Counted from the stretch's first letter, positions 9,820 to 25,001 are shown. The stretch is DNA of 64,000 nt from Escherichia coli (GCF_022846255.1 NZ_AP025682.1), one strand, 5' to 3'. Translations and numbers: made by a program. The notes: generated by a model from the sequence alone, not told the origin.

Positions 9820-11245
9820 TAATGCCAGTCAGTTAAGCAACTGACTGGCTCTTTTTCGGGGCTGTGGGGTATTTCCAGGGCCTCTCCTTTACCACTCTCG
9901 GGAAGGCCCTTTCCCTTCTTGTCGGTAATTTCACAAGTTGTCCCATACTTGCAAGATCGCGCATCAGCTCCGGTATACGTCCCGGTGAAGCGCCCTGCAA
10001 TGTCATCAGCATTCTCATCACCATTCCACATGATTCTGAGAAACTCAGTTGATTCGGCCAGTAACCTTTCAGATGTTCCGCCATTTTAATCATCTGATAT
10101 CTCACCAGATTATAAGCCAGTAAGACACCCCACAGCTCTTGCTCCACAAGCTCCGGTTTTTTACTTCTCAGCGTCAGCCTGCTCAGTTGCATCGTCTGTT
10201 TTATCTCCCTGTATCCCAGTTCGATTTCCCAGCGATGACTGTACAGATCCGCCATTTCTCCTCCGGGGAAGCGCATGGCGTCCGTCATCGACGTCAGCAG
10301 ATGGCAGACTTTTCCTTTGCGCGTCACGGTCAGCAGGCGGGCTGTCACTTCATTTCCCAGTCCCGGCCACTTTTTTCGTGCCTGCGGGCTGGTTTTCAGC
10401 TTCACCAGATGATCGCCTTTACCCAGTTTTCTGATCTCTTCATATTGCGCTCCCTTTCTGAGAGGTATCATCCAGTGGCGGTGTTCTCCCGCCAGGCTCC
10501 AGGCATTTAACAGTCCCAGTGAGTAATAACCTTTATCCATTAACGTCAGAGTGTTATCGCCGGTTTGTTCTATAAGTTGCTCAGCAAGCTCATTTTCGCT
10601 GTTCTTCATCGTGCCGAAGGCTGCAGCCGTCAGCAGATGGCTGGTCAGTTCCATCTGGCAGACCATTTTGACCTGCGGGTAGAGCGCCGGGTTCCCGGCA
10701 TGTGTCTGGCGGGGGAAGGCTGCATCGTTCTCTGGTGTATCCGGTGTGCGCCAGAACACACCATCGATGGCCAGCAGGGTCAGGCCGCACCAGTGCGGAT
10801 GCGGCGTGGCGTTATGCCAGAGCTGCGCTGTTTTCGTGAACACGCGGCGGACAGCCTCACTTCCCAGGCGCTGGCGGGCCTGAATAACGGCACTGGGGGC
10901 AACGAAGGGGCGATTGCCCGGCAGCATGATGTCCAGGCGATTCACAATCTGGTGAAGAGGTTCTTTACGCTCAAGCGCCATGCCAACAATACACCAGACC
11001 ATCATTTCGAGGGGAAGACGGCGCTTGCGTAGCGTTACAGTACCTGATTCGGCAAGGCAACGAGAGATGAGTTCGGGGTCGAGGTAATCCCCCAGAGAAG
11101 TCAGTGGGTTACGCAGAGAATCGTAACGGGATACCAGATCAAGAGCCTGTCCAATGTGCATAAAAAAATCCGGAAACAAGTGAGCGTTTCCGGATTCTTA
11201 CACAGCCACTGGATCGGTCAACTGATCCTTAACTGATCGGCATTA
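9820..11245 (-). mobile_element. IS4 insertion sequence, complete, 1426 bp
   Basis: 18-bp imperfect terminal inverted repeats TAATGCCAGTCAGTTAAG (9820-9837) and TAATGCCGATCAGTTAAG (revcomp of 11228-11245); flanked by 12-bp direct repeat CACCGACAGGGG (9808-9819 and 11246-11257); encodes IS4 transposase. Confidence 0.9.
9833..11161 (-). CDS. insG: IS4 transposase (InsG-like, DDE family), 442 aa
   Basis: ORF beginning [16 protein letters not shown]... matches recalled IS4 transposase; longest ORF extends 6 codons further upstream. Confidence 0.85.
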
Positions 11246-14453: not shown

Positions 14454-17303
14454 TTGAAATACCTTGCTTCTTTTCGTACAACCCTGAAAGCCTCGCGCTA
14501 CATGTTCAGAGCATTGGCGTTAGTGCTCTGGCTGTTGATTGCTTTTTCATCCGTTTTTTACATCGTTAATGCGTTACATCAGCGAGAATCGGAAATTCGT
14601 CAGGAATTTAATCTGAGTTCCGATCAGGCTCAGCGCTTTATTCAACGCACCTCTGATGTGATGAAAGAGCTGAAGTACATAGCTGAAAATCGCTTATCGG
14701 CAGAAAACGGTGTGCTTTCCCCGCGTGGACGAGAAACGCAGACGGATGTGCCTGCGTTTGAACCGCTGTTTGCTGACTCTGATTGTTCCGCAATGAGTAA
14801 CACCTGGCGAGGTTCTCTGGAGTCATTGGCGTGGTTTATGCGCTACTGGCGCGATAATTTTTCTGCGGCTTACGATCTAAACCGGGTATTTTTAATCGGC
14901 AGCGATAACCTCTGCATGGCTAATTTCGGTCTGCGTGATATGCCAGTGGAACGCGATACCGCGTTAAAAGCTTTGCATGAACGCATTAATAAATATCGAA
15001 ATGCACCACAAGATGATAGTGGCAGTAACCTCTACTGGATCAGCGAAGGTCCGCGCCCTGGCGTCGGGTATTTTTACGCCTTGACGCCAGTTTATCTGGC
15101 GAACCGGTTGCAGGCGCTTTTGGGTGTCGAGCAAACCATCCGGATGGAGAACTTTTTCTTACCTGGTACGTTGCCGATGGGGGTTACCATTCTTGATGAA
15201 AATGGTCATACCCTGATTTCGCTTACCGGACCAGAAAGCAAAATTAAGGGCGATCCTCGCTGGATGCAGGAACGCTCCTGGTTTGGCTATACGGAAGGGT
15301 TCCGGGAGCTGGTGCTGAAGAAAAATCTGCCACCCTCATCGCTAAGCATCGTGTATTCGGTGCCGGTTGATAAGGTGCTGGAACGCATTCGCATGTTGAT
15401 CCTTAACGCAATTTTGCTGAATGTGCTTGCCGGAGCTGCATTGTTTACTCTCGCGCGGATGTACGAGCGGCGTATTTTCATTCCGGCGGAAAGCGACGCC
15501 TTGCGACTGGAAGAACATGAGCAGTTTAATCGCAAGATTGTCGCCTCCGCGCCAGTGGGTATCTGCATTTTGCGTACCGCTGATGGCGTCAATATTTTAA
15601 GTAACGAACTGGCGCATACCTATCTCAATATGCTTACGCATGAGGATCGCCAACGGCTGACACAAATTATCTGTGGGCAGCAGGTCAATTTTGTTGATGT
15701 CCTGACCAGCAACAATACCAATCTGCAAATCAGCTTCGTCCATTCGCGCTATCGTAATGAAAACGTGGCCATTTGTGTGCTTGTGGATGTTTCTTCGCGC
15801 GTGAAGATGGAAGAGTCGTTGCAGGAGATGGCACAAGCAGCGGAACAGGCGAGTCAGTCAAAATCGATGTTCCTTGCCACCGTCAGTCATGAGCTGCGAA
15901 CGCCGCTGTATGGCATTATCGGTAACCTGGATCTGTTGCAAACCAAAGAGTTACCGAAAGGCGTCGATCGTCTGGTGACGGCAATGAACAACTCTTCCAG
16001 CCTGTTGTTGAAAATTATCAGCGATATTCTCGATTTCTCGAAGATTGAATCGGAACAGTTGAAGATCGAACCGCGTGAGTTTTCACCGCGTGAAGTGATG
16101 AACCACATCACCGCCAACTATTTACCGCTGGTGGTACGCAAGCAGTTAGGCTTGTACTGCTTTATTGAACCGGATGTGCCAGTGGCCTTAAATGGCGACC
16201 CGATGCGTTTACAGCAGGTCATCTCCAACCTGTTGAGTAACGCCATAAAATTCACCGATACCGGCTGTATAGTTTTGCATGTTCGCGCTGATGGCGATTA
16301 TCTCTCTATCCGTGTTCGCGATACCGGCGTGGGGATTCCGGCGAAAGAAGTCGTGCGCTTGTTTGATCCCTTCTTCCAGGTCGGAACGGGCGTACAGCGA
16401 AACTTCCAGGGGACCGGTCTGGGTCTGGCGATTTGTGAAAAACTGATCAGCATGATGGACGGCGATATCTCGGTAGATTCAGAACCGGGAATGGGCAGCC
16501 AGTTTACCGTGCGTATTCCGTTGTACGGCGCTCAGTACCCGCAGAAAAAAGGCGTGGAAGGGTTGAGTGGTAAACGCTGCTGGCTGGCGGTCCGCAATGC
16601 GTCGCTCTGTCAGTTCCTGGAAACCAGTTTGCAGCGCAGCGGCATCGTCGTTACAACATACGAAGGGCAGGAACCGACTCCCGAAGATGTGTTAATCACT
16701 GACGAGGTAGTGAGCAAAAAATGGCAGGGTAGAGCGGTAGTGACCTTCTGTCGTCGCCATATTGGTATTCCGCTGGAGAAAGCGCCAGGGGAGTGGGTAC
16801 ACAGTGTGGCTGCCCCGCATGAGCTACCGGCATTGTTGGCGCGTATTTATTTGATCGAGATGGAGAGCGATGATCCTGCTAACGCTCTGCCGTCGACGGA
16901 CAAAGCGGTCAGCGATAACGACGATATGATGATTCTGGTCGTGGATGATCATCCGATTAACCGGCGTCTTCTGGCAGATCAGTTGGGATCGTTGGGCTAT
17001 CAATGTAAAACCGCGAATGATGGCGTCGATGCGCTTAATGTACTTAGCAAGAATCATATTGATATCGTGCTTAGCGACGTCAACATGCCAAATATGGATG
17101 GTTACCGCTTGACGCAACGCATTCGTCAGTTGGGACTGACGTTGCCGGTTATCGGAGTAACTGCTAATGCGTTGGCTGAAGAGAAGCAGCGGTGTCTGGA
17201 GTCCGGTATGGACAGCTGCCTGTCGAAGCCGGTAACGCTGGATGTGATAAAACAGACGCTAACGGTATATGCCGAGAGGGTCAGGAAATCGCGGGATTCG
17301 TAG
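14454..17303 (+). CDS. rcsC: Hybrid sensor histidine kinase RcsC
   Basis: 949-aa ORF with HisKA/HATPase and C-terminal receiver domain; size and position match rcsC. Confidence 0.95.
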   Translation: MKYLASFRTTLKASRYMFRALALVLWLLIAFSSVFYIVNALHQRESEIRQEFNLSSDQAQRFIQRTSDVMKELKYIAENRLSAENGVLSPRGRETQTDVPAFEPLFADSDCSAMSNTWRGSLESLAWFMRYWRDNFSAAYDLNRVFLIGSDNLCMANFGLRDMPVERDTALKALHERINKYRNAPQDDSGSNLYWISEGPRPGVGYFYALTPVYLANRLQALLGVEQTIRMENFFLPGTLPMGVTILDENGHTLISLTGPESKIKGDPRWMQERSWFGYTEGFRELVLKKNLPPSSLSIVYSVPVDKVLERIRMLILNAILLNVLAGAALFTLARMYERRIFIPAESDALRLEEHEQFNRKIVASAPVGICILRTADGVNILSNELAHTYLNMLTHEDRQRLTQIICGQQVNFVDVLTSNNTNLQISFVHSRYRNENVAICVLVDVSSRVKMEESLQEMAQAAEQASQSKSMFLATVSHELRTPLYGIIGNLDLLQTKELPKGVDRLVTAMNNSSSLLLKIISDILDFSKIESEQLKIEPREFSPREVMNHITANYLPLVVRKQLGLYCFIEPDVPVALNGDPMRLQQVISNLLSNAIKFTDTGCIVLHVRADGDYLSIRVRDTGVGIPAKEVVRLFDPFFQVGTGVQRNFQGTGLGLAICEKLISMMDGDISVDSEPGMGSQFTVRIPLYGAQYPQKKGVEGLSGKRCWLAVRNASLCQFLETSLQRSGIVVTTYEGQEPTPEDVLITDEVVSKKWQGRAVVTFCRRHIGIPLEKAPGEWVHSVAAPHELPALLARIYLIEMESDDPANALPSTDKAVSDNDDMMILVVDDHPINRRLLADQLGSLGYQCKTANDGVDALNVLSKNHIDIVLSDVNMPNMDGYRLTQRIRQLGLTLPVIGVTANALAEEKQRCLESGMDSCLSKPVTLDVIKQTLTVYAERVRKSRDS

Positions 17304-17500
17304 GACGGATAAGGCGTTTACGCCGCATCTGGCATTCAGTGCAAATGCCAGATGCGACGCTGACGTGTCTTATCTGGCCTACTTTAATGTAATCTGTTGA
17401 AATAATGGGAATCGTAGGACGGATAAGGCGTTTACGCCGCATCCGGCAATCGGTGCAAATGCCAGATAAGACACTAACGCGTCTTATCTGGCCTACAGGT
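17304..17500. repeat. REP/BIME-type extragenic palindromic repeats between convergent rcsC and rcsB
   Basis: Two near-identical copies of GTAGGACGGATAAGGCGTTTACGCCGCATC(T/C)GGCA plus GCCAGATG/AAGACGCGTCTTATCTGGCCTAC palindromes typical of E. coli REP. Confidence 0.6.
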
Positions 17501-18169: not shown

Positions 18170-20842
18170 CTACAGCAAGCTCTTGACATAACTGTCAATG
18201 TCGCTGATGTATTTTTCTATTCCTGGAACATCCTTCTCACGAATCAGATGTTCCAGCGTTTCACATAACTGCTTGCCGGGTACCAGATTTAGCATGGCAA
18301 ATACGCCTTTAAGACGATGAGCCGTTTGGGCTAACGCAGCAAAGTCACTGGTTGCTGCTTCAGTATACAGCCTCTTAACATCATCCGGTACTGTGTCTAC
18401 AAAGAGCGCATAATAGCCGCTGGCATGGAGTTGCGCATTTTCATCTCCGCCCAGAGGCGATTCTGTCACCTCTTCCTGCGCCAGTTGCACTTCAATTAAT
18501 TGTAAGACCGCTTCCTGCATAGCGTTGCTCATATTGAAATTGACGCACAATTGACCAGGCCCAATTTCCCGTACGCCAGACTCATCATCGCTTAAAAGCA
18601 AGCCAGAGGCAGTAAGATTAGACGGATTATCCGTTAAAAAGATATCATAATCTTGACTAATTAATCTTTCATCGGGTGTGATACAGGTTGCACCCCAATT
18701 TTCTAACTGGCGAGTGACAATATTCCGAATTTCTGCCGAAGTAACATCCACCATTACGCAGACATCATCCAGTAATCGCTCTTCTTCCTCTTCAACTTCC
18801 GGGTCAGCTGCGAGCATTTTGATATGCACAGAGTAGCGTGTACCGAGCCCATCCCGCGTTTTGATGTTTAAATGACCGCCCAGTTTACGCGCCAGTTGAT
18901 CGCTCAGCCAGAATGCCAGCGGGTCCGCCTTGCCATAGCGATCGTTTTGGGTCTGGTTGATAAACGGGAAGTGCAAATTATCCATTTCATGAATACTTAC
19001 GCCTTCTCCCGTGTCCAGAATGCGGAACGTCAGGCGGTCTTCGGAGGACTCATCCTGATCAACCTCAAGGGTGATTTTTCCCAATTGCGTTGAGGTCACG
19101 GCATATTGCATCAGTAGTAGCAAAATACGTCGTAAGGCATCGCGATCGCCGCGGCGCATATCGTGTGCTTTCAGATGATTGTTAATCAGCAGTTGCAGAC
19201 CTTTACGCTTGATGGCAGGCAACACTGAAGGCACAACTTCATCAATTAAATCCTGCACGGAGAACAGCTCCGTCTCACTTTTCCAGCTATCGTCCGCAAG
19301 CATGTTCGCTAACTGTATTTCATCGACCAGCCGCACCAGCACATCTGCCTGATTCGCCAGTTGTTTGCCTTCCGGGGCGTTGAGTTTAGCCGCGCTCTCC
19401 GCCAGGGACTGTGCGGGTTCTTTCAGCGCATCGCCAATGTTTTTCATAAAGGTCATCCGCCCCTGCTGGTTTTTCTCATACAGACGCTGCGCCTGCTTGA
19501 GTTTCTTGTTTACCAGCACTTCGCGATCCTGATCGCGAATAATGAAAATTTGTGTGCGCGGCGCAACCTGGCTGCGGAACATGCGGATCTCATACAGCTC
19601 GTTATTGATCGTCGCCTGAATAATCCCCTGATGCTGTTCCGCCATGGTGGTGATGTTTTGCAGATTCAAATGCGGCAGCAAATGATCGGCAATTTTGTTA
19701 CTTATGACTGTGCGGTTCGATTCCTGATCGTGAACCAGCAGGCCGAGCGGCAGCAGTGAGACTATCTCTTCATTAATTGCCCGTAAAATGCGCAATTCGT
19801 TATTGACCGCCGTGCTGGGGACGCTTTCTGTACTGCGGCTGGAGAAATGGCGGAATGTGGTATAGCCAAATAACGCCAGCGCCAGCAAACCGATGTTCAG
19901 CAGCAGTGGCAGCAGAATGTTTTGCAACGTATCCAGCAGTAAGGTGCCGTAAGGAACCTGCCAGACCAGGCGCATATCGGTAGAGTTGAGTGCCGAGGAG
20001 ATTTCAATCTTCGTACTGTTAAAGTGGATACTGACGCTATCCGTCCCTTCTTTCTCATTTTCATTGTTTCCCGTTGCCGTCGCGTCTGGCTCAAGGCGGA
20101 AACTGTCCAGCGGCATACCCGGTGGGATCAAATCATTAATCGGCAGATCAAAAGCCACGACCGTTGCCAGATGTCCCGGCTGGTTGAACGTGGTACGCAA
20201 GGTAAAGTAATGACCGTTCTGCCAGGCCAGGCGGCGCATGTTAGAAAAACTTTCGCGTTCATCGAGGGCGTTGGCCTGTTGCAACATCTCTGCACGACGT
20301 GAATCAACAATGTCGCTGACGGTCGATTCTTTAAATCCGGAGGTGAGATCTTTGAGGGGCAGGGTTGAGATCAGCACCAGACTGTTATCCTGACCATTCA
20401 GGTAATACATCGACCACGGTACATTTTCTGCGCCCCACAATGTGTCCAGATAGGTGGACATCCGTTGAGTCATCTCAAGCGTTGAGTTGTCGTGAGAGCC
20501 AAAGATTAACGCTTCCGTTTTGCGGCGTGGTTTCTCCAGATAGTAGACATCCTGTTTCAGGCGCGTCTCTTGTAAACCTTCGCCGGAGGAGGGGGAGGTT
20601 GTCGCGGCAATGTTGTCGTAGATCTGCCAGGTCACGTAACGCCAGGTATCGACGCGCTTTTGGATAGCGTGGGTAATGTCGACAATCTGGTAACTTTTAT
20701 CTTTCAGCCAGGCGTTAACGGCGCTTTGTACCATTACACCCATCGTCACCAGTAACACAATGATCAACAGTAAAAAGAAGCGGGTAATGCTCCCCGGTAG
20801 GAGTGAAAAGCGGGTCGTGGCCGTTGTCTCTTTCTGACGCAT
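18170..20842 (-). CDS. rcsD: Phosphotransfer intermediate protein RcsD
   Basis: 890-aa ORF, membrane N-terminus, HPt-containing C-terminus; directly upstream of rcsB. Confidence 0.9.
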   Translation of the reverse strand: MRQKETTATTRFSLLPGSITRFFLLLIIVLLVTMGVMVQSAVNAWLKDKSYQIVDITHAIQKRVDTWRYVTWQIYDNIAATTSPSSGEGLQETRLKQDVYYLEKPRRKTEALIFGSHDNSTLEMTQRMSTYLDTLWGAENVPWSMYYLNGQDNSLVLISTLPLKDLTSGFKESTVSDIVDSRRAEMLQQANALDERESFSNMRRLAWQNGHYFTLRTTFNQPGHLATVVAFDLPINDLIPPGMPLDSFRLEPDATATGNNENEKEGTDSVSIHFNSTKIEISSALNSTDMRLVWQVPYGTLLLDTLQNILLPLLLNIGLLALALFGYTTFRHFSSRSTESVPSTAVNNELRILRAINEEIVSLLPLGLLVHDQESNRTVISNKIADHLLPHLNLQNITTMAEQHQGIIQATINNELYEIRMFRSQVAPRTQIFIIRDQDREVLVNKKLKQAQRLYEKNQQGRMTFMKNIGDALKEPAQSLAESAAKLNAPEGKQLANQADVLVRLVDEIQLANMLADDSWKSETELFSVQDLIDEVVPSVLPAIKRKGLQLLINNHLKAHDMRRGDRDALRRILLLLMQYAVTSTQLGKITLEVDQDESSEDRLTFRILDTGEGVSIHEMDNLHFPFINQTQNDRYGKADPLAFWLSDQLARKLGGHLNIKTRDGLGTRYSVHIKMLAADPEVEEEEERLLDDVCVMVDVTSAEIRNIVTRQLENWGATCITPDERLISQDYDIFLTDNPSNLTASGLLLSDDESGVREIGPGQLCVNFNMSNAMQEAVLQLIEVQLAQEEVTESPLGGDENAQLHASGYYALFVDTVPDDVKRLYTEAATSDFAALAQTAHRLKGVFAMLNLVPGKQLCETLEHLIREKDVPGIEKYISDIDSYVKSLL

Positions 20843-21153
20843 TCGTGTTTATGACCTGTTAAAACTTCGCGAAGTGATAGGGCAGTATAAAGGGTACAGT
20901 GTGAAATTCCAGACTCTTACCTGATTGATGATTCTCTATTCTCCAGTGATATTTATCATCCTGCATTGGGGGAAATAGATGTACAAGCGCCATTTTGCTG
21001 TACAAATAACCTACAAAAAGCCTAACGAAATTAATTGCAAATAAACGAAGATTGCTGGAAATTATGCTGATGTTAATTATTTGTGAAATAGTTAACAAGC
21101 GTTATAGTTTTTCTGTGGTAGCACAGAATAATGAAAAGTGTGTAAAGAAGGGT

Positions 21154-21246
21154 AAAAAAAACCGGATGCGAGGCATCCGGTTGAAATAGGGGTAAACAGA
21201 CATTCAGAAATGAATGACGGTAATAAATAAAGTTAATGATGATAGC
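21154..21246 (-). ncRNA. micF: MicF antisense sRNA (regulator of ompF mRNA)
   Basis: Minus strand reads GCTATCATCATTAACTTTATTTATTACCGTCATTCATTTCTGAATGTCTGTTTACCCCTATTTCAACCGGATGCCTCGCATCCGGTTTTTTTT, matching recalled micF; divergent from ompC; ends in hairpin plus U-run. Confidence 0.85.
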
Positions 21247-21397
21247 GGGAGATATTCTAGTTGCGAGTGAAGGTTTTGTTTTGACATTCAGTGCTGTCAA
21301 ATACTTAAGAATAAGTTATTGATTTTAACCTTGAATTATTATTGCTTGATGTTAGGTGCTTATTTCGCCATTCCGCAATAATCTTAAAAAGTTCCCT

Positions 21398-21470
21398 TAT
21401 ATTTACATTTTGAAACATCTATAGCGATAAATGAAACATCTTAAAAGTTTTAGTATCATATTCGTGTTGG
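21398..21470 (+). promoter_or_regulatory. OmpR-binding boxes of the ompC promoter
   Basis: Tandem TTTACATTTTGAAACATCTA / ATGAAACATCTTAAAAGTTTTAG motifs about 120-180 bp upstream of the ompC ATG. Confidence 0.5.
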
Positions 21471-21580
21471 ATTATTCTGCATTTTTGGGGAGAATGGACT
21501 TGCCGACTGATTAATGAGGGTTAATCAGTATGCAGTGGCATAAAAAAGCAAATAAAGGCATATAACAGAGGGTTAATAAC

Positions 21581-22696
21581 ATGAAAGTTAAAGTACTGTC
21601 CCTCCTGGTCCCAGCTCTGCTGGTAGCAGGCGCAGCAAACGCTGCTGAAATTTACAACAAAGACGGCAACAAATTAGATCTGTACGGTAAAGTTGACGGC
21701 CTGCACTATTTCTCCGATAACGACTCTAAAGATGGCGACAAGACCTACATGCGTCTTGGCTTCAAAGGTGAAACTCAGGTTACTGATCAACTGACCGGTT
21801 ATGGTCAGTGGGAATATCAGATTCAAGGTAACGAACCTGAAAGTGACAATAGTTCCTGGACCCGTGTGGCATTCGCTGGTCTGAAATTCCAGGACGTTGG
21901 TTCTTTTGACTATGGTCGTAACTACGGCGTTGTTTATGACGTAACATCCTGGACCGACGTGCTGCCAGAATTCGGTGGTGACACCTACAGCTCTGACAAC
22001 TTCATGCAGCAGCGTGGTAACGGCTTCGCGACCTACCGTAACACCGACTTCTTCGGTCTGGTTGATGGCCTGAACTTTGCTGTTCAGTACCAGGGTAAAA
22101 ACGGTAGCCCGTCTGGCGAAGGTATGACTGGTGTGACCAACAATGGTCGTGATGTTCTGGAACAGAACGGTGACGGCGTTGGTGGTTCTATCACTTATGA
22201 CATCGGTGAAGGCTTCAGCTTCGGTGGTGCAATCTCCAGCTCCAAACGTACCGCAGAGCAGAACAATTATGGCATCGGTAACGGCGATCGTGCAGAAACC
22301 TACACTGGTGGTCTGAAATACGACGCTAACAATGTATACCTGGCTGCTCAGTACACCCAGACTTACAACGCAACTCTGGCTGGTGATTTAGGTTGGGCGA
22401 ACAAAGCTCAGAACTTTGAAGTGGTTGCACAGTACCAGTTCGACTTCGGTCTGCGTCCTTCTGTAGCTTACCTGCAGTCCAAAGGTAAAAACCTGAATGC
22501 CAACATCGCTGGTCGTACTTACGACGACGAAGATCTGCTGAAATATGTTGATGTTGGTGCGACCTACTACTTCAACAAAAACATGTCCACCTACGTTGAC
22601 TACAAAATCAACCTGCTGGACGACAACCAGTTCACCCGCGCTGCTGGCATCAACACTGATAACATCGTAGCTCTGGGTCTGGTTTACCAGTTCTAA
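21581..22696 (+). CDS. ompC: Outer membrane porin OmpC (371 aa allele)
   Basis: Porin ORF with signal peptide [21 protein letters not shown] and C-terminal ...ALGLVYQF; conserved beta-barrel core. Confidence 0.95.
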
Positions 22697-22715
22697 TCTC
22701 GATTGATATCGAACA

Positions 22716-22738
22716 AAGGGCCTGCGGGCCCTTTTTTC
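22716..22738 (+). terminator. Rho-independent terminator of ompC
   Basis: AAAGGGCCTGCGGGCCCTTTTTT hairpin plus T-run 20 bp after the ompC stop. Confidence 0.6.
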
Positions 22739-22807
22739 ATTGTTTTCAGCGTACAAACACAGTTTTTTGGTGTACTCTTGCGACCGTTCGCATGAGGATA
22801 ATCACGT

Positions 22808-23863
22808 ATGGAAATAAGCTTTACCCGCGTGGCACTGCTGGCTGCCGCGCTCTTCTTTGTTGGTTGCGATCAAAAACCACAACCCGCCAAAACCCACGCT
22901 ACTGAAGTTACCGTTCTTGAAGGCAAAACCATGGGTACCTTCTGGCGTGCCAGCATTCCGGGCATTGACGCCAAACGCAGTGCCGAACTTAAAGAAAAGA
23001 TTCAGACCCAGCTGGACGCCGACGATCAGCTGCTTTCGACCTATAAAAAAGATTCCGCGCTGATGCGCTTTAACGACTCGCAAAGTTTGTCGCCGTGGCC
23101 AGTAAGTGAAGCGATGGCCGATATCGTCACCACCTCGCTACGCATTGGCGCGAAGACCGATGGCGCGATGGATATAACCGTCGGGCCGCTGGTGAATCTG
23201 TGGGGCTTTGGCCCGGAACAACAGCCGGTTCAAATTCCGAGCCAGGAACAGATCGATGCGATGAAAGCCAAAACCGGCTTACAGCACCTGACGGTCATTA
23301 ATCAGTCGCATCAGCAATATCTGCAAAAAAACCTGCCGGATTTATATGTCGATCTCTCCACTGTCGGCGAAGGCTATGCGGCGGATCATCTGGCACGCTT
23401 GATGGAGCAGGAAGGGATTTCCCGCTATCTGGTGTCGGTGGGCGGCGCGCTGAACAGCCGTGGCATGAACGGTGAAGGCCAGCCGTGGCGGGTAGCGATT
23501 CAAAAACCAACCGATAAAGAAAACGCGGTTCAGGCTGTGGTGGATATCAACGGTCATGGCATTAGCACCTCTGGCAGCTACCGTAACTATTACGAACTGG
23601 ACGGCAAACGTCTTTCTCATGTTATCGATCCGCAAACCGGGCGTCCTATCGAACACAATCTGGTATCCGTGACGGTGATTGCCCCGACGGCGCTGGAAGC
23701 CGATGCCTGGGATACTGGCTTAATGGTACTGGGGCCGGAGAAAGCCAAAGAGGTTGTTCGCCGGGAAGGACTGGCGGTCTACATGATCACCAAAGAGGGC
23801 GATAATTTTAAAGCCTGGATGTCGCCGCAGTTTAAAAGCTTCCTTATCAGCGAAAAAAATTAA
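22808..23863 (+). CDS. apbE: FAD:protein FMN transferase (ApbE/Ftp), lipoprotein
   Basis: 351-aa ORF with lipoprotein signal (LFFVGC) and ApbE family sequence. Confidence 0.9.
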   Translation: MEISFTRVALLAAALFFVGCDQKPQPAKTHATEVTVLEGKTMGTFWRASIPGIDAKRSAELKEKIQTQLDADDQLLSTYKKDSALMRFNDSQSLSPWPVSEAMADIVTTSLRIGAKTDGAMDITVGPLVNLWGFGPEQQPVQIPSQEQIDAMKAKTGLQHLTVINQSHQQYLQKNLPDLYVDLSTVGEGYAADHLARLMEQEGISRYLVSVGGALNSRGMNGEGQPWRVAIQKPTDKENAVQAVVDINGHGISTSGSYRNYYELDGKRLSHVIDPQTGRPIEHNLVSVTVIAPTALEADAWDTGLMVLGPEKAKEVVRREGLAVYMITKEGDNFKAWMSPQFKSFLISEKN

Positions 23864-23869
23864 AGCGCA
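23857..23869 (+). promoter_or_regulatory. Ada box (methylated-Ada binding site) of the ada promoter
   Basis: AAATTAAAGCGCA matches the Ada box consensus AAANNAAAGCGCA, about 70 bp upstream of the ada ATG, overlapping the apbE stop. Confidence 0.5.
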
Positions 23870-23936
23870 AGATTGTTGGTTTTTGTGCGATGGTGACCGG
23901 GCAGACTAAAGGCTATCCTTAACCAGGGAGCTGATT

Positions 23937-25001
23937 ATGAAATACGCCACATGCTTAACTGACGATCAACGCTGGCAATCTGTCTTAGCCCGCGACTCGA
24001 ATGCCGACGGCGAATTCGTTTTCGCCGTGCGCACCACGGGTATCTTTTGCCGTCCGTCTTGCCGAGCCAGACATGCCTTGCGGGAAAATGTCTCCTTCTA
24101 CGCAAATGCCAGCGAGGCGCTTGCCGCTGGCTTTCGTCCCTGCAAACGTTGTCAGCCAGACAAAGCCAATCCCCTGCAACATCGCCTTGATAAAATTACC
24201 CACGCCTGCCGACTTCTGGAACAGGAAACGCCTGTAACGCTGGAAGCCTTAGCCGACCAGGTGGCGATGAGTCCATTTCATTTGCATCGGTTGTTTAAAG
24301 CGACTACCGGAATGACGCCTAAAGCCTGGCAACAGGCCTGGCGCGCTCGCCGTTTGCGCGAATTGCTGGCGAAAGGGGAGAGCGTGACTACATCTATTAT
24401 TAACGCCGGATTCCCCGACAGCAGCAGTTACTACCGCAAAGCCGACGAAACGCTGGGCATGACGGCTAAACAATTCCGTCACGGTGGCGAAAATCTGGCG
24501 GTGCGTTACGCGCTGGCTGATTGTGAGCTGGGCCGTTGCCTGGTGGCAGAAAGTGAGCGGGGGATTTGCGCGATATTACTGGGCGATGATGACGCGACAC
24601 TAATCAGCGAGTTACAGCAGATGTTTCCCGCTGCCGACAGCGCGCCTGCCGATCTGACGTTTCAGCAACATGTGCGTGAAGTGATCGCCAGCCTCAATCA
24701 ACGCGATACGCCGCTGACGTTACCGCTGGACATTCGCGGCACTGCTTTTCAGCAACAAGTCTGGCAGGCACTGCGCACGATACCTTGCGGTGAAACCGTC
24801 AGTTATCAGCAACTGGCTAACGCCATCGGCAAACCGAAAGCGGTACGGGCCGTTGCCAGCGCCTGTGCCGCCAACAAGCTGGCTATCATAATACCCTGTC
24901 ATCGGGTGGTCCGTGGTGATGGCACACTTTCCGGTTACCGCTGGGGCGTGTCGCGTAAAGCGCAACTGCTGCGCCGCGAAGCTGAGAATGAGGAGAGGTA
25001 A
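23937..25001 (+). CDS. ada: Bifunctional transcriptional activator / O6-methylguanine-DNA methyltransferase Ada
   Basis: 354-aa ORF; N-terminal Cys-rich methylphosphotriester domain, AraC-type HTH, C-terminal PCHRV active site. Confidence 0.95.
   Translation: MKYATCLTDDQRWQSVLARDSNADGEFVFAVRTTGIFCRPSCRARHALRENVSFYANASEALAAGFRPCKRCQPDKANPLQHRLDKITHACRLLEQETPVTLEALADQVAMSPFHLHRLFKATTGMTPKAWQQAWRARRLRELLAKGESVTTSIINAGFPDSSSYYRKADETLGMTAKQFRHGGENLAVRYALADCELGRCLVAESERGICAILLGDDDATLISELQQMFPAADSAPADLTFQQHVREVIASLNQRDTPLTLPLDIRGTAFQQQVWQALRTIPCGETVSYQQLANAIGKPKAVRAVASACAANKLAIIIPCHRVVRGDGTLSGYRWGVSRKAQLLRREAENEER

Follow-up and report, generated by a model that had tools for sequence, protein, structure and literature searches.

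The ompC locus

The window analysed here is a 64,000-nt stretch of Escherichia coli DNA (NZ_AP025682.1), in which ompC is found in the canonical gene order rcsD–micF–ompC–apbE–ada–alkB. The features of the locus that concern us are the following, in window coordinates:

18170–20842, minus strand: rcsD, next to micF
21154–21247, minus strand: micF, an antisense sRNA gene transcribed away from ompC; it matches Rfam RF00033 over its full length (1–94) with 116.8 bits, where the gathering score is 79
21402–21495, plus strand: ompC promoter region, identical to K-12
21581–22696, plus strand: ompC coding sequence, an intact ATG-to-TAA reading frame of 371 codons plus stop, whose product starts with a signal peptide and ends in YQF
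21581–21643, plus strand: signal peptide, codons 1–21 (mature PDB chains begin at query residue 22)
22715–22742, plus strand: ompC intrinsic terminator, identified by a terminator scan (stem of 8 bp and loop of 4 nt, with a T run) and identical to K-12
22808–23863: apbE, downstream of ompC

The window ompC is intact and encodes the major outer-membrane porin OmpC. The NCBIfam model for this porin (NF007841) gives the protein 745.8 bits against a cut-off of 484; the scores with the OmpF model (473 bits, cut-off 583) and the PhoE model (462.8 bits, cut-off 599) both fall below their cut-offs, and the Pfam family PF00267 (Porin_1) is matched with E = 5e-141. An AlphaFold2 model built on a deep alignment of 79 porins (A2, identity down to ~32%) has a pLDDT of 90.7, a pTM of 0.88 and 16 strands. 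A model from a shallow alignment (A1, 48 OmpC homologues of at least 78% identity) reached a pLDDT of only 34 and was discarded. The predicted structure is a 16-strand β-barrel that has eight loops on the extracellular side, of which L3 folds inward, and its best Foldseek match is K-12 OmpC itself (PDB 2J1N, TM 0.97, rmsd 1.6 Å). In precursor numbering, the loops span residues 46–55 (L1), 83–91 (L2), 116–144 (L3), 172–198 (L4), 223–236 (L5), 263–274 (L6), 304–316 (L7) and 345–361 (L8). The gene looks fully functional.

The regulatory surroundings follow those of K-12 closely. With K-12 ompC the window gene shares its locus, signal peptide, terminator, fold and 5′ UTR, a near-identical promoter and a micF that is one base apart. 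Four bases differ in the upstream 440 nt, at 21165 in the micF terminator stem, at 21252 just past micF and at the dinucleotide 21399–21400 (GC to TA). By correspondence with the K-12 ompC promoter, the OmpR boxes C1–C3 would lie at ~21402–21465, and the –35 and –10 elements are presumably TTGGAT (21467–21472) and GAGAAT (21490–21495). The dinucleotide change is located just upstream of C1 and is the only one near the promoter. We also note that, from a reading of the two sequences, the change at 21165 would convert a presumed G–U pair of the K-12 micF terminator hairpin into a G–C pair.

The divergence from K-12 is confined largely to the gene itself. DNA differences are concentrated at ~21681–22574, where 4–27 are found per 100 nt, as compared with 0–5 per 100 nt upstream and for ~0.9 kb downstream; distal apbE and ada show up to 10 per 100 nt. 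The flanking genes differ from K-12 by ~1–3%, and rcsD is 98.5–99.7% identical to essentially all complete E. coli genomes. Because the flanks and rcsD resemble those of E. coli, we read the host chromosome as that of an ordinary non-K-12 E. coli, with ompC regulation that is K-12-like by sequence. A non-K-12 background had been proposed in the original prediction from the ompC allele, and it is evident outside the gene as well, in the ~1–3% divergence of the flanks and in an IS4 insertion in atoC (see below).

Differences from K-12 OmpC

We aligned the window protein directly with K-12 OmpC (WP_000865568.1, 367 aa, locus L001 on a K-12-derived RefSeq chromosome). The two share 333 identical residues and are separated by 32 substitutions and 8 gapped positions. 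The original prediction held that the allele differs from K-12 behind a conserved signal peptide, and that it encodes 371 rather than 367 residues; the alignment agrees on all three counts. The 21 signal peptide residues are all as in K-12, and the difference in length is the net of five residues gained in L7, one gained at the periplasmic turn T4 and one lost in each of L4 and L5. The four segments that had been singled out as variant do differ from K-12. They correspond to 12 residues in L1, 11 residues in L2, the stretch NATLAGD...FEVVAQ, which contains the L6 differences together with A281V in a strand, and 17 residues of L7 that include a five-residue insertion (NANIA), accompanied by I319L. 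Beyond these, differences are found in L4 (five positions), L5 (six), L3 (G137S), L8 (D354A) and the flanks of T4 (positions 208, 209, 213 and 214), such that all eight loops are affected.

The same prediction placed the differences in extracellular loops, and this is correct for most of them. When the 40 differing positions are mapped onto the model, 31 fall in L1–L8 (four in L1, five in L2, one in L3, five in L4, six in L5, three in L6, six in L7 and one in L8). Exceptions to an outward-facing location are G137S, which is internal, E194, which is in the vestibule, and the four positions around T4. The five remaining positions (24, 252, 281, 295 and 319) are in strands and are conservative exchanges among I, V, L and A. 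The mature protein has 350 residues, 131 of them in loops, and 30 of the 39 distinct positions fall among these 131 (Fisher p = 1.2e-7). Two of the changes face the pore: S137 in the constriction loop L3, and E194 in place of K-12 R195, a vestibule residue (PMC6970295). The net charge of the mature protein is –18, compared with –15 for K-12.

Mosaic structure of the allele

A codon alignment of the window ompC with 12 other alleles reveals three blocks from two sources. The breakpoints between them were examined by the maximum chi-square method with permutation, using the ompC alleles of EC17CM2 (L096, WP_000865538.1) and MB53 (L094, NZ_CP073939.1), both E. coli, as putative parents. The informative sites occur in the order 38 of EC17CM2 type, ~80 of MB53/E. 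fergusonii type and 7 of EC17CM2 type; interspersed within the ~80 are four sites of EC17CM2 type and one of neither type. The maximum chi-square is 87.9 (permutation p at most 1e-4), with breakpoints at 21928/21937 and 22537/22561. The resulting segments are:

21581–21928, plus strand: 5′ segment of a common E. coli type, encoding β1–L1–β2–β3–L2–β4–β5
21937–22537, plus strand: E. fergusonii-type patch, approximately codons 120–320, encoding L3 with S137, L4, T4, L5, L6 and L7 with the NANIA insertion
22561–22696, plus strand: 3′ segment of E. coli type, ~135 nt, encoding β14–β15–L8–β16 and the stop codon

The first segment differs from the EC17CM2 gene at 0–1 positions and from every other aligned allele at 33–40, and window residues 22–136 are the same as those of PDB 2XE2. 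Over the patch, E. fergusonii ompC and MB53 are nearly the same as the window, and K-12 and EC17CM2 are each ~100 differences away. The 3′ segment differs little from any allele. Both breakpoints sit in conserved strand-coding DNA.

From this pattern we conclude that the allele's difference from K-12 is the product of homologous recombination within the gene, between allele types that already existed. The first ~350 nt, which encode L1 and L2, would have come from a common E. coli allele type, as would the final ~135 nt, and the central 600 nt, with L3–L7, would most probably have been imported from E. fergusonii or a close relative. The predicted outcome is a standard 16-strand barrel that keeps its regulatory sequence and has its outer surface largely replaced.

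Related alleles and their distribution

The frequency of the allele was surveyed in 5426 complete RefSeq E. coli genomes. At the level of the whole gene, two genomes are at least 99% identical to the window, A25 (from a monkey) and CP090611 (from a pig), and five are 95–99% identical, namely four records of the enteropathogenic (EPEC) strain E2348/69 and MB53. A further 208 genomes are 90–95% identical and 5215 are 80–90% identical. The segments of the gene differ in how widely they are found: 526 of the 5426 genomes match the 5′ segment at 99% identity or more, and only seven match the central patch at 95% or more, four of these being the E2348/69 records.

The exact window protein is already public as 'porin OmpC [Escherichia coli]' (BDH32771.1 and others, 98 contigs at NCBI). 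Its loops have also been catalogued: the 24-residue L4 is class a3, the 14-residue L5 is class a8 and the 13-residue L7 is class 'l' in the S2 Table of Beck et al. 2016, where all three classes are represented by the DEC1A protein WP_000865540.1 (PMC5056734). A sequencing or assembly artefact was considered and rejected, given the occurrence of the same protein on 98 contigs and of the same DNA block in several independent assemblies. That block is an identical haplotype of ~3.6 kb around ompC (~20800–24400), shared by assemblies that are otherwise 1–2% different.

One of the closest known alleles is that of EPEC O127:H6 E2348/69 and DEC1A (WP_000865540.1), which shares 369 of 371 residues with the window and is 98.4% identical in DNA. 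The L4, L5 and L7 types, the mosaic plan and the 3′ breakpoint are the same in E2348/69 as in the window. The two residues that differ are D137 and D361 in E2348/69, as opposed to S137 and N361 in the window. The first of these follows from the position of the 5′ breakpoint, which in E2348/69 is at 22069/22072, ~135 nt further downstream, such that the E. coli-type start of L3, and with it D137, is retained.

The low-permeability D137/E195 alleles of phylogroup D (ST38) are a second point of comparison. EC17CM2 carries such an allele, with an L4 of Beck class d1, and PDB 2XE2 ('OmpC20') is another example. The first ~357 nt and residues 1–136 of these alleles match the window, and both have glutamate in place of K-12 R195. 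In contrast, their L4, L5, L6 and L7 are entirely unlike those of the window, with ~109 differences in the 698 aligned columns past the breakpoint. The glutamate itself (window E194, aligned with K-12 R195) belongs here to the E. fergusonii-type patch, and residue 137 is S rather than the reduced-permeability D (PMC6970295) that is present in both EC17CM2 and E2348/69. The window allele is not assigned to this class because of S137; agreement with it is limited to the 5′ third and the glutamate, and this identification was rejected.

Relationship to E. fergusonii

The first indication of a source for the patch comes from protein clusters. The 90% cluster that contains the window OmpC includes proteins named E. 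fergusonii, and the best other cluster is also E. fergusonii. A 371-aa protein annotated 'MULTISPECIES: porin OmpC [Escherichia]' (P0135, 77 contigs) matches the window protein exactly from residue 92 to residue 349, and all 10 of the P0135 contexts that we examined have E. fergusonii-type flanks, with an 889-aa RcsD and a 123-nt ompC–apbE spacer. The L3–L7 region of this and other E. fergusonii OmpC proteins (P0016 and P0004) is as in the window, with ~98% identity in patch DNA. P0135 differs from the window at residues 47, 48, 50, 59, 85, 89 and 91 (L1, β2 and L2) and at residues 350 and 361 (L8).

We compared the window with 11 E. fergusonii loci (L004 and L100–L109) along the length of the region. 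The DNA differences are:

rcsD: 24%
micF intergenic region: 27%
ompC 5′ third: ~10%
patch 21937–22537: 1.8–2.6%
ompC–apbE spacer: 19–20%
apbE 5′ half: 24–25%
apbE 3′ half, ada and alkB: 3–8%

Over the same patch, the window differs from MB53 by 1.3% and from K-12 by 16.5%. Nei–Gojobori dS values between the window and E. fergusonii are 1.77 for rcsD and 1.63 for the apbE 5′ half, and only 0.115 for ompC codons 120–323, where the value for the window and K-12 is 0.45; ompC is a highly expressed and codon-biased gene, such that a low dS is by itself weaker evidence here than it would be in an average gene. The patch is far closer between the two species than is the DNA around it, which argues for horizontal exchange rather than shared ancestry. 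It also differs by ~2% from every E. fergusonii copy examined, with 15 synonymous differences, and the mean patch diversity across the 11 E. fergusonii loci is 0.31%. Thus, either the transfer took place some time ago, or the donor was a related or otherwise unsampled lineage.

Strain MB53 carries a longer tract of E. fergusonii type. Its rcsD is of E. coli type (0–7 differences per 200 nt from K-12), and the region corresponding to window positions ~21546–23330 is E. fergusonii-like, with 2–13 differences per 200 nt from E. fergusonii as compared with 16–50 from K-12. This contiguous tract of ~1.8 kb (locus positions ~2966–4750) takes in the complete ompC gene, the ompC–apbE spacer and ~520 nt of apbE. 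The ApbE type of MB53 falls in a cluster with the protein of ATCC 35469, the type strain of E. fergusonii, and with numerous further entries from that species; the MB53 version is found on 36 contigs labelled E. coli. Given the MB53 tract, and a patch type that is uniform in the sampled E. fergusonii and rare in E. coli, E. fergusonii is the favoured donor, and import from this species or a close relative is the likeliest origin of the patch. Taken as a whole, a functional ompC allele in an ordinary E. coli, mosaic in structure and with a central patch most probably derived from E. fergusonii or a close relative, is the reading that we prefer, with a probability of approximately 0.8 on the sequence comparisons described.

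It is also conceivable that the transfer ran in the other direction, with an E. coli ompC type exported to E. fergusonii, where it is now common, and the window keeping the old E. coli allele. Both species have a recombination hotspot here, the pool of ompC alleles in E. coli is very large, and in one E. fergusonii locus (L004) the apbE 3′ half and ada are ~3% from the window, as compared with 4–8% for the other E. fergusonii loci. However, all 11 E. fergusonii loci are of this type and vary by a mean of just 0.31%, and the patch's neighbors in that species (rcsD, the intergenic regions and the apbE 5′ half) are 19–27% away from E. coli. Among the 5426 complete E. coli genomes, moreover, just 7 carry the patch type at 95% identity or above, and in MB53 it is physically linked to the E. 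fergusonii-typical apbE 5′ half. We therefore regard export from E. coli as improbable.

A slightly poorer explanation is that the allele class is older than the split between E. coli and E. fergusonii and has been maintained in both by balancing selection from phages or immunity, with no recent transfer. Outer-membrane protein loop types are few, old and reshuffled (PMC12175518), and a third Escherichia lineage, represented by locus L013, has the same ompC type, as such a trans-species polymorphism would allow. Against it, the divergence of the patch (~2%, dS 0.115) is lower than that of the ordinary neighboring genes ada and alkB (3–6%), and lies far below that of the adjacent E. fergusonii-specific DNA (24–27%, dS ~1.7). 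Neither the sharp breakpoints in conserved strand-coding DNA nor the long contiguous E. fergusonii tract of MB53 would be expected from an old shared polymorphism. Accumulation of point mutations and small indels under positive selection in a single E. coli lineage, without recombination, is very improbable: positive selection on ompC is reported in work cited in bioRxiv 10.1101/2021.09.21.461324 and the differences do cluster in loops, but 69 synonymous differences from K-12 stand beside the 45 non-synonymous ones, the informative sites form three blocks that match two different existing alleles, and flanks that are ~1% diverged surround a gene body with up to 27 differences per 100 nt.

Two further observations concern the wider relationships of this region. 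Locus L013 (NZ_JAATUR010000027.1, 'E. coli strain SCPM-O-B-8794', a GTDB species representative) has an rcsD ~8–10% diverged from that of the window and carries an E. fergusonii-type ompC body that is ~3% different. Its rcsD suggests a probable place in a cryptic clade of Escherichia, and the presence of the ompC type there is a caveat to E. fergusonii as the donor. In E. fergusonii itself, the DNA from rcsD to the apbE 5′ half forms a hyper-divergent island, 19–27% from E. coli (dS ~1.7), which ends inside apbE at approximately window position 23340; ada and alkB beyond it are just 3–7% diverged. One possible source of this island is an earlier transfer from an enterobacterium less closely related to it.

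Relation to published work and possible consequences

Hypervariability in ompC is known to be concentrated in L1, L2, L4, L5 and L7 (PMC5056734; PMC6970295; bioRxiv 10.1101/2021.09.21.461324; PMC12175518), and the mosaic evolution of the gene has been described (bioRxiv 10.1101/2021.09.21.461324; PMC12175518). One hypervariable region has been placed on the periplasmic side (bioRxiv 10.1101/2021.09.21.461324), and the T4 cluster of the window protein matches it. In these respects the allele is ordinary and already known, with a public protein, catalogued L4, L5 and L7 loop types and published ompC mosaicism. The sources of the recombined hypervariable regions are stated to be unknown (PMC12175518). 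The literature searched contains no earlier report of E. coli ompC segments with an E. fergusonii origin; the species is used there only as an outgroup. The apparent E. fergusonii origin of the L3–L7 cassette, including that of EPEC E2348/69, is a modest addition to that literature rather than a system of a new kind.

The receptor surface is the most obvious property that could be affected. Recognition of OmpC by CdiA-EC536 is determined by L4 and L5, for which many natural loop combinations exist (PMC5056734), and L1, L4 and L5 have been implicated in phage attachment, that of T4 among others (bioRxiv 10.1101/2021.09.21.461324). Based on these roles, the receptor surface of the allele should differ from that of K-12, and by analogy the replaced surface would be expected to alter how antibodies, CdiA effectors and OmpC-dependent phages recognize the porin. 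The predicted non-K-12 surface is relevant to the choice of phages or vaccines against strains with the allele, which also marks the window as coming from a non-K-12 lineage.

A second possible consequence concerns permeation. The G137D and R195L substitutions, as well as the phylogroup-D D137/E195 allele, lower susceptibility to several β-lactams (PMC6970295). By analogy, the change of R195 to E, together with the net charge of –18 instead of –15, may reduce the permeation of anionic β-lactams through the window OmpC.

These considerations suggest a more general proposal, namely that E. fergusonii is a natural donor of OmpC loop cassettes covering L3–L7 (~600 nt to 1.8 kb) to E. coli, the prototype EPEC strain E2348/69 included, and that the cassettes bring with them a surface foreign to E. 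coli-adapted phages and CdiA and a more acidic vestibule. We would give this proposal slightly better than even odds. If true, it would provide a concrete source for hypervariable-region types whose origin is described as unknown (PMC12175518).

Other features of the window

The window as a whole has no close counterpart among complete genomes. Neither 25-kb half of positions 1–50000 has a match above ~98.5% among complete RefSeq E. coli genomes, and the lineage from which the window derives seems to be unrepresented in that set. We also note that the first 9.8 kb of the window are just 97.5% identical to A25.

An IS4-family element of 1426 bp is inserted in the 3′ end of atoC at 9820–11245, with its transposase reading frame at 9833–11179 on the minus strand and a 12-bp target duplication. 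The atoC reading frame is left at 411 aa instead of 461, without the C-terminal DNA-binding domain, and the insertion probably inactivates the AtoSC-controlled ato operon. The convergent spacer between rcsC and rcsB (~17300–17500) exceeds that of A25 and of loci L007–L012 by 114 nt, because a REP/BIME-like palindromic unit is present twice. The yejO autotransporter gene (43421–46012) is a pseudogene, with codon 68 changed from K to a premature stop (43622–43624); an intact gene of 863 aa is found in E. coli SMS-3-5. In K-12, yejO is interrupted by IS5, a lesion different from the premature stop in the window.
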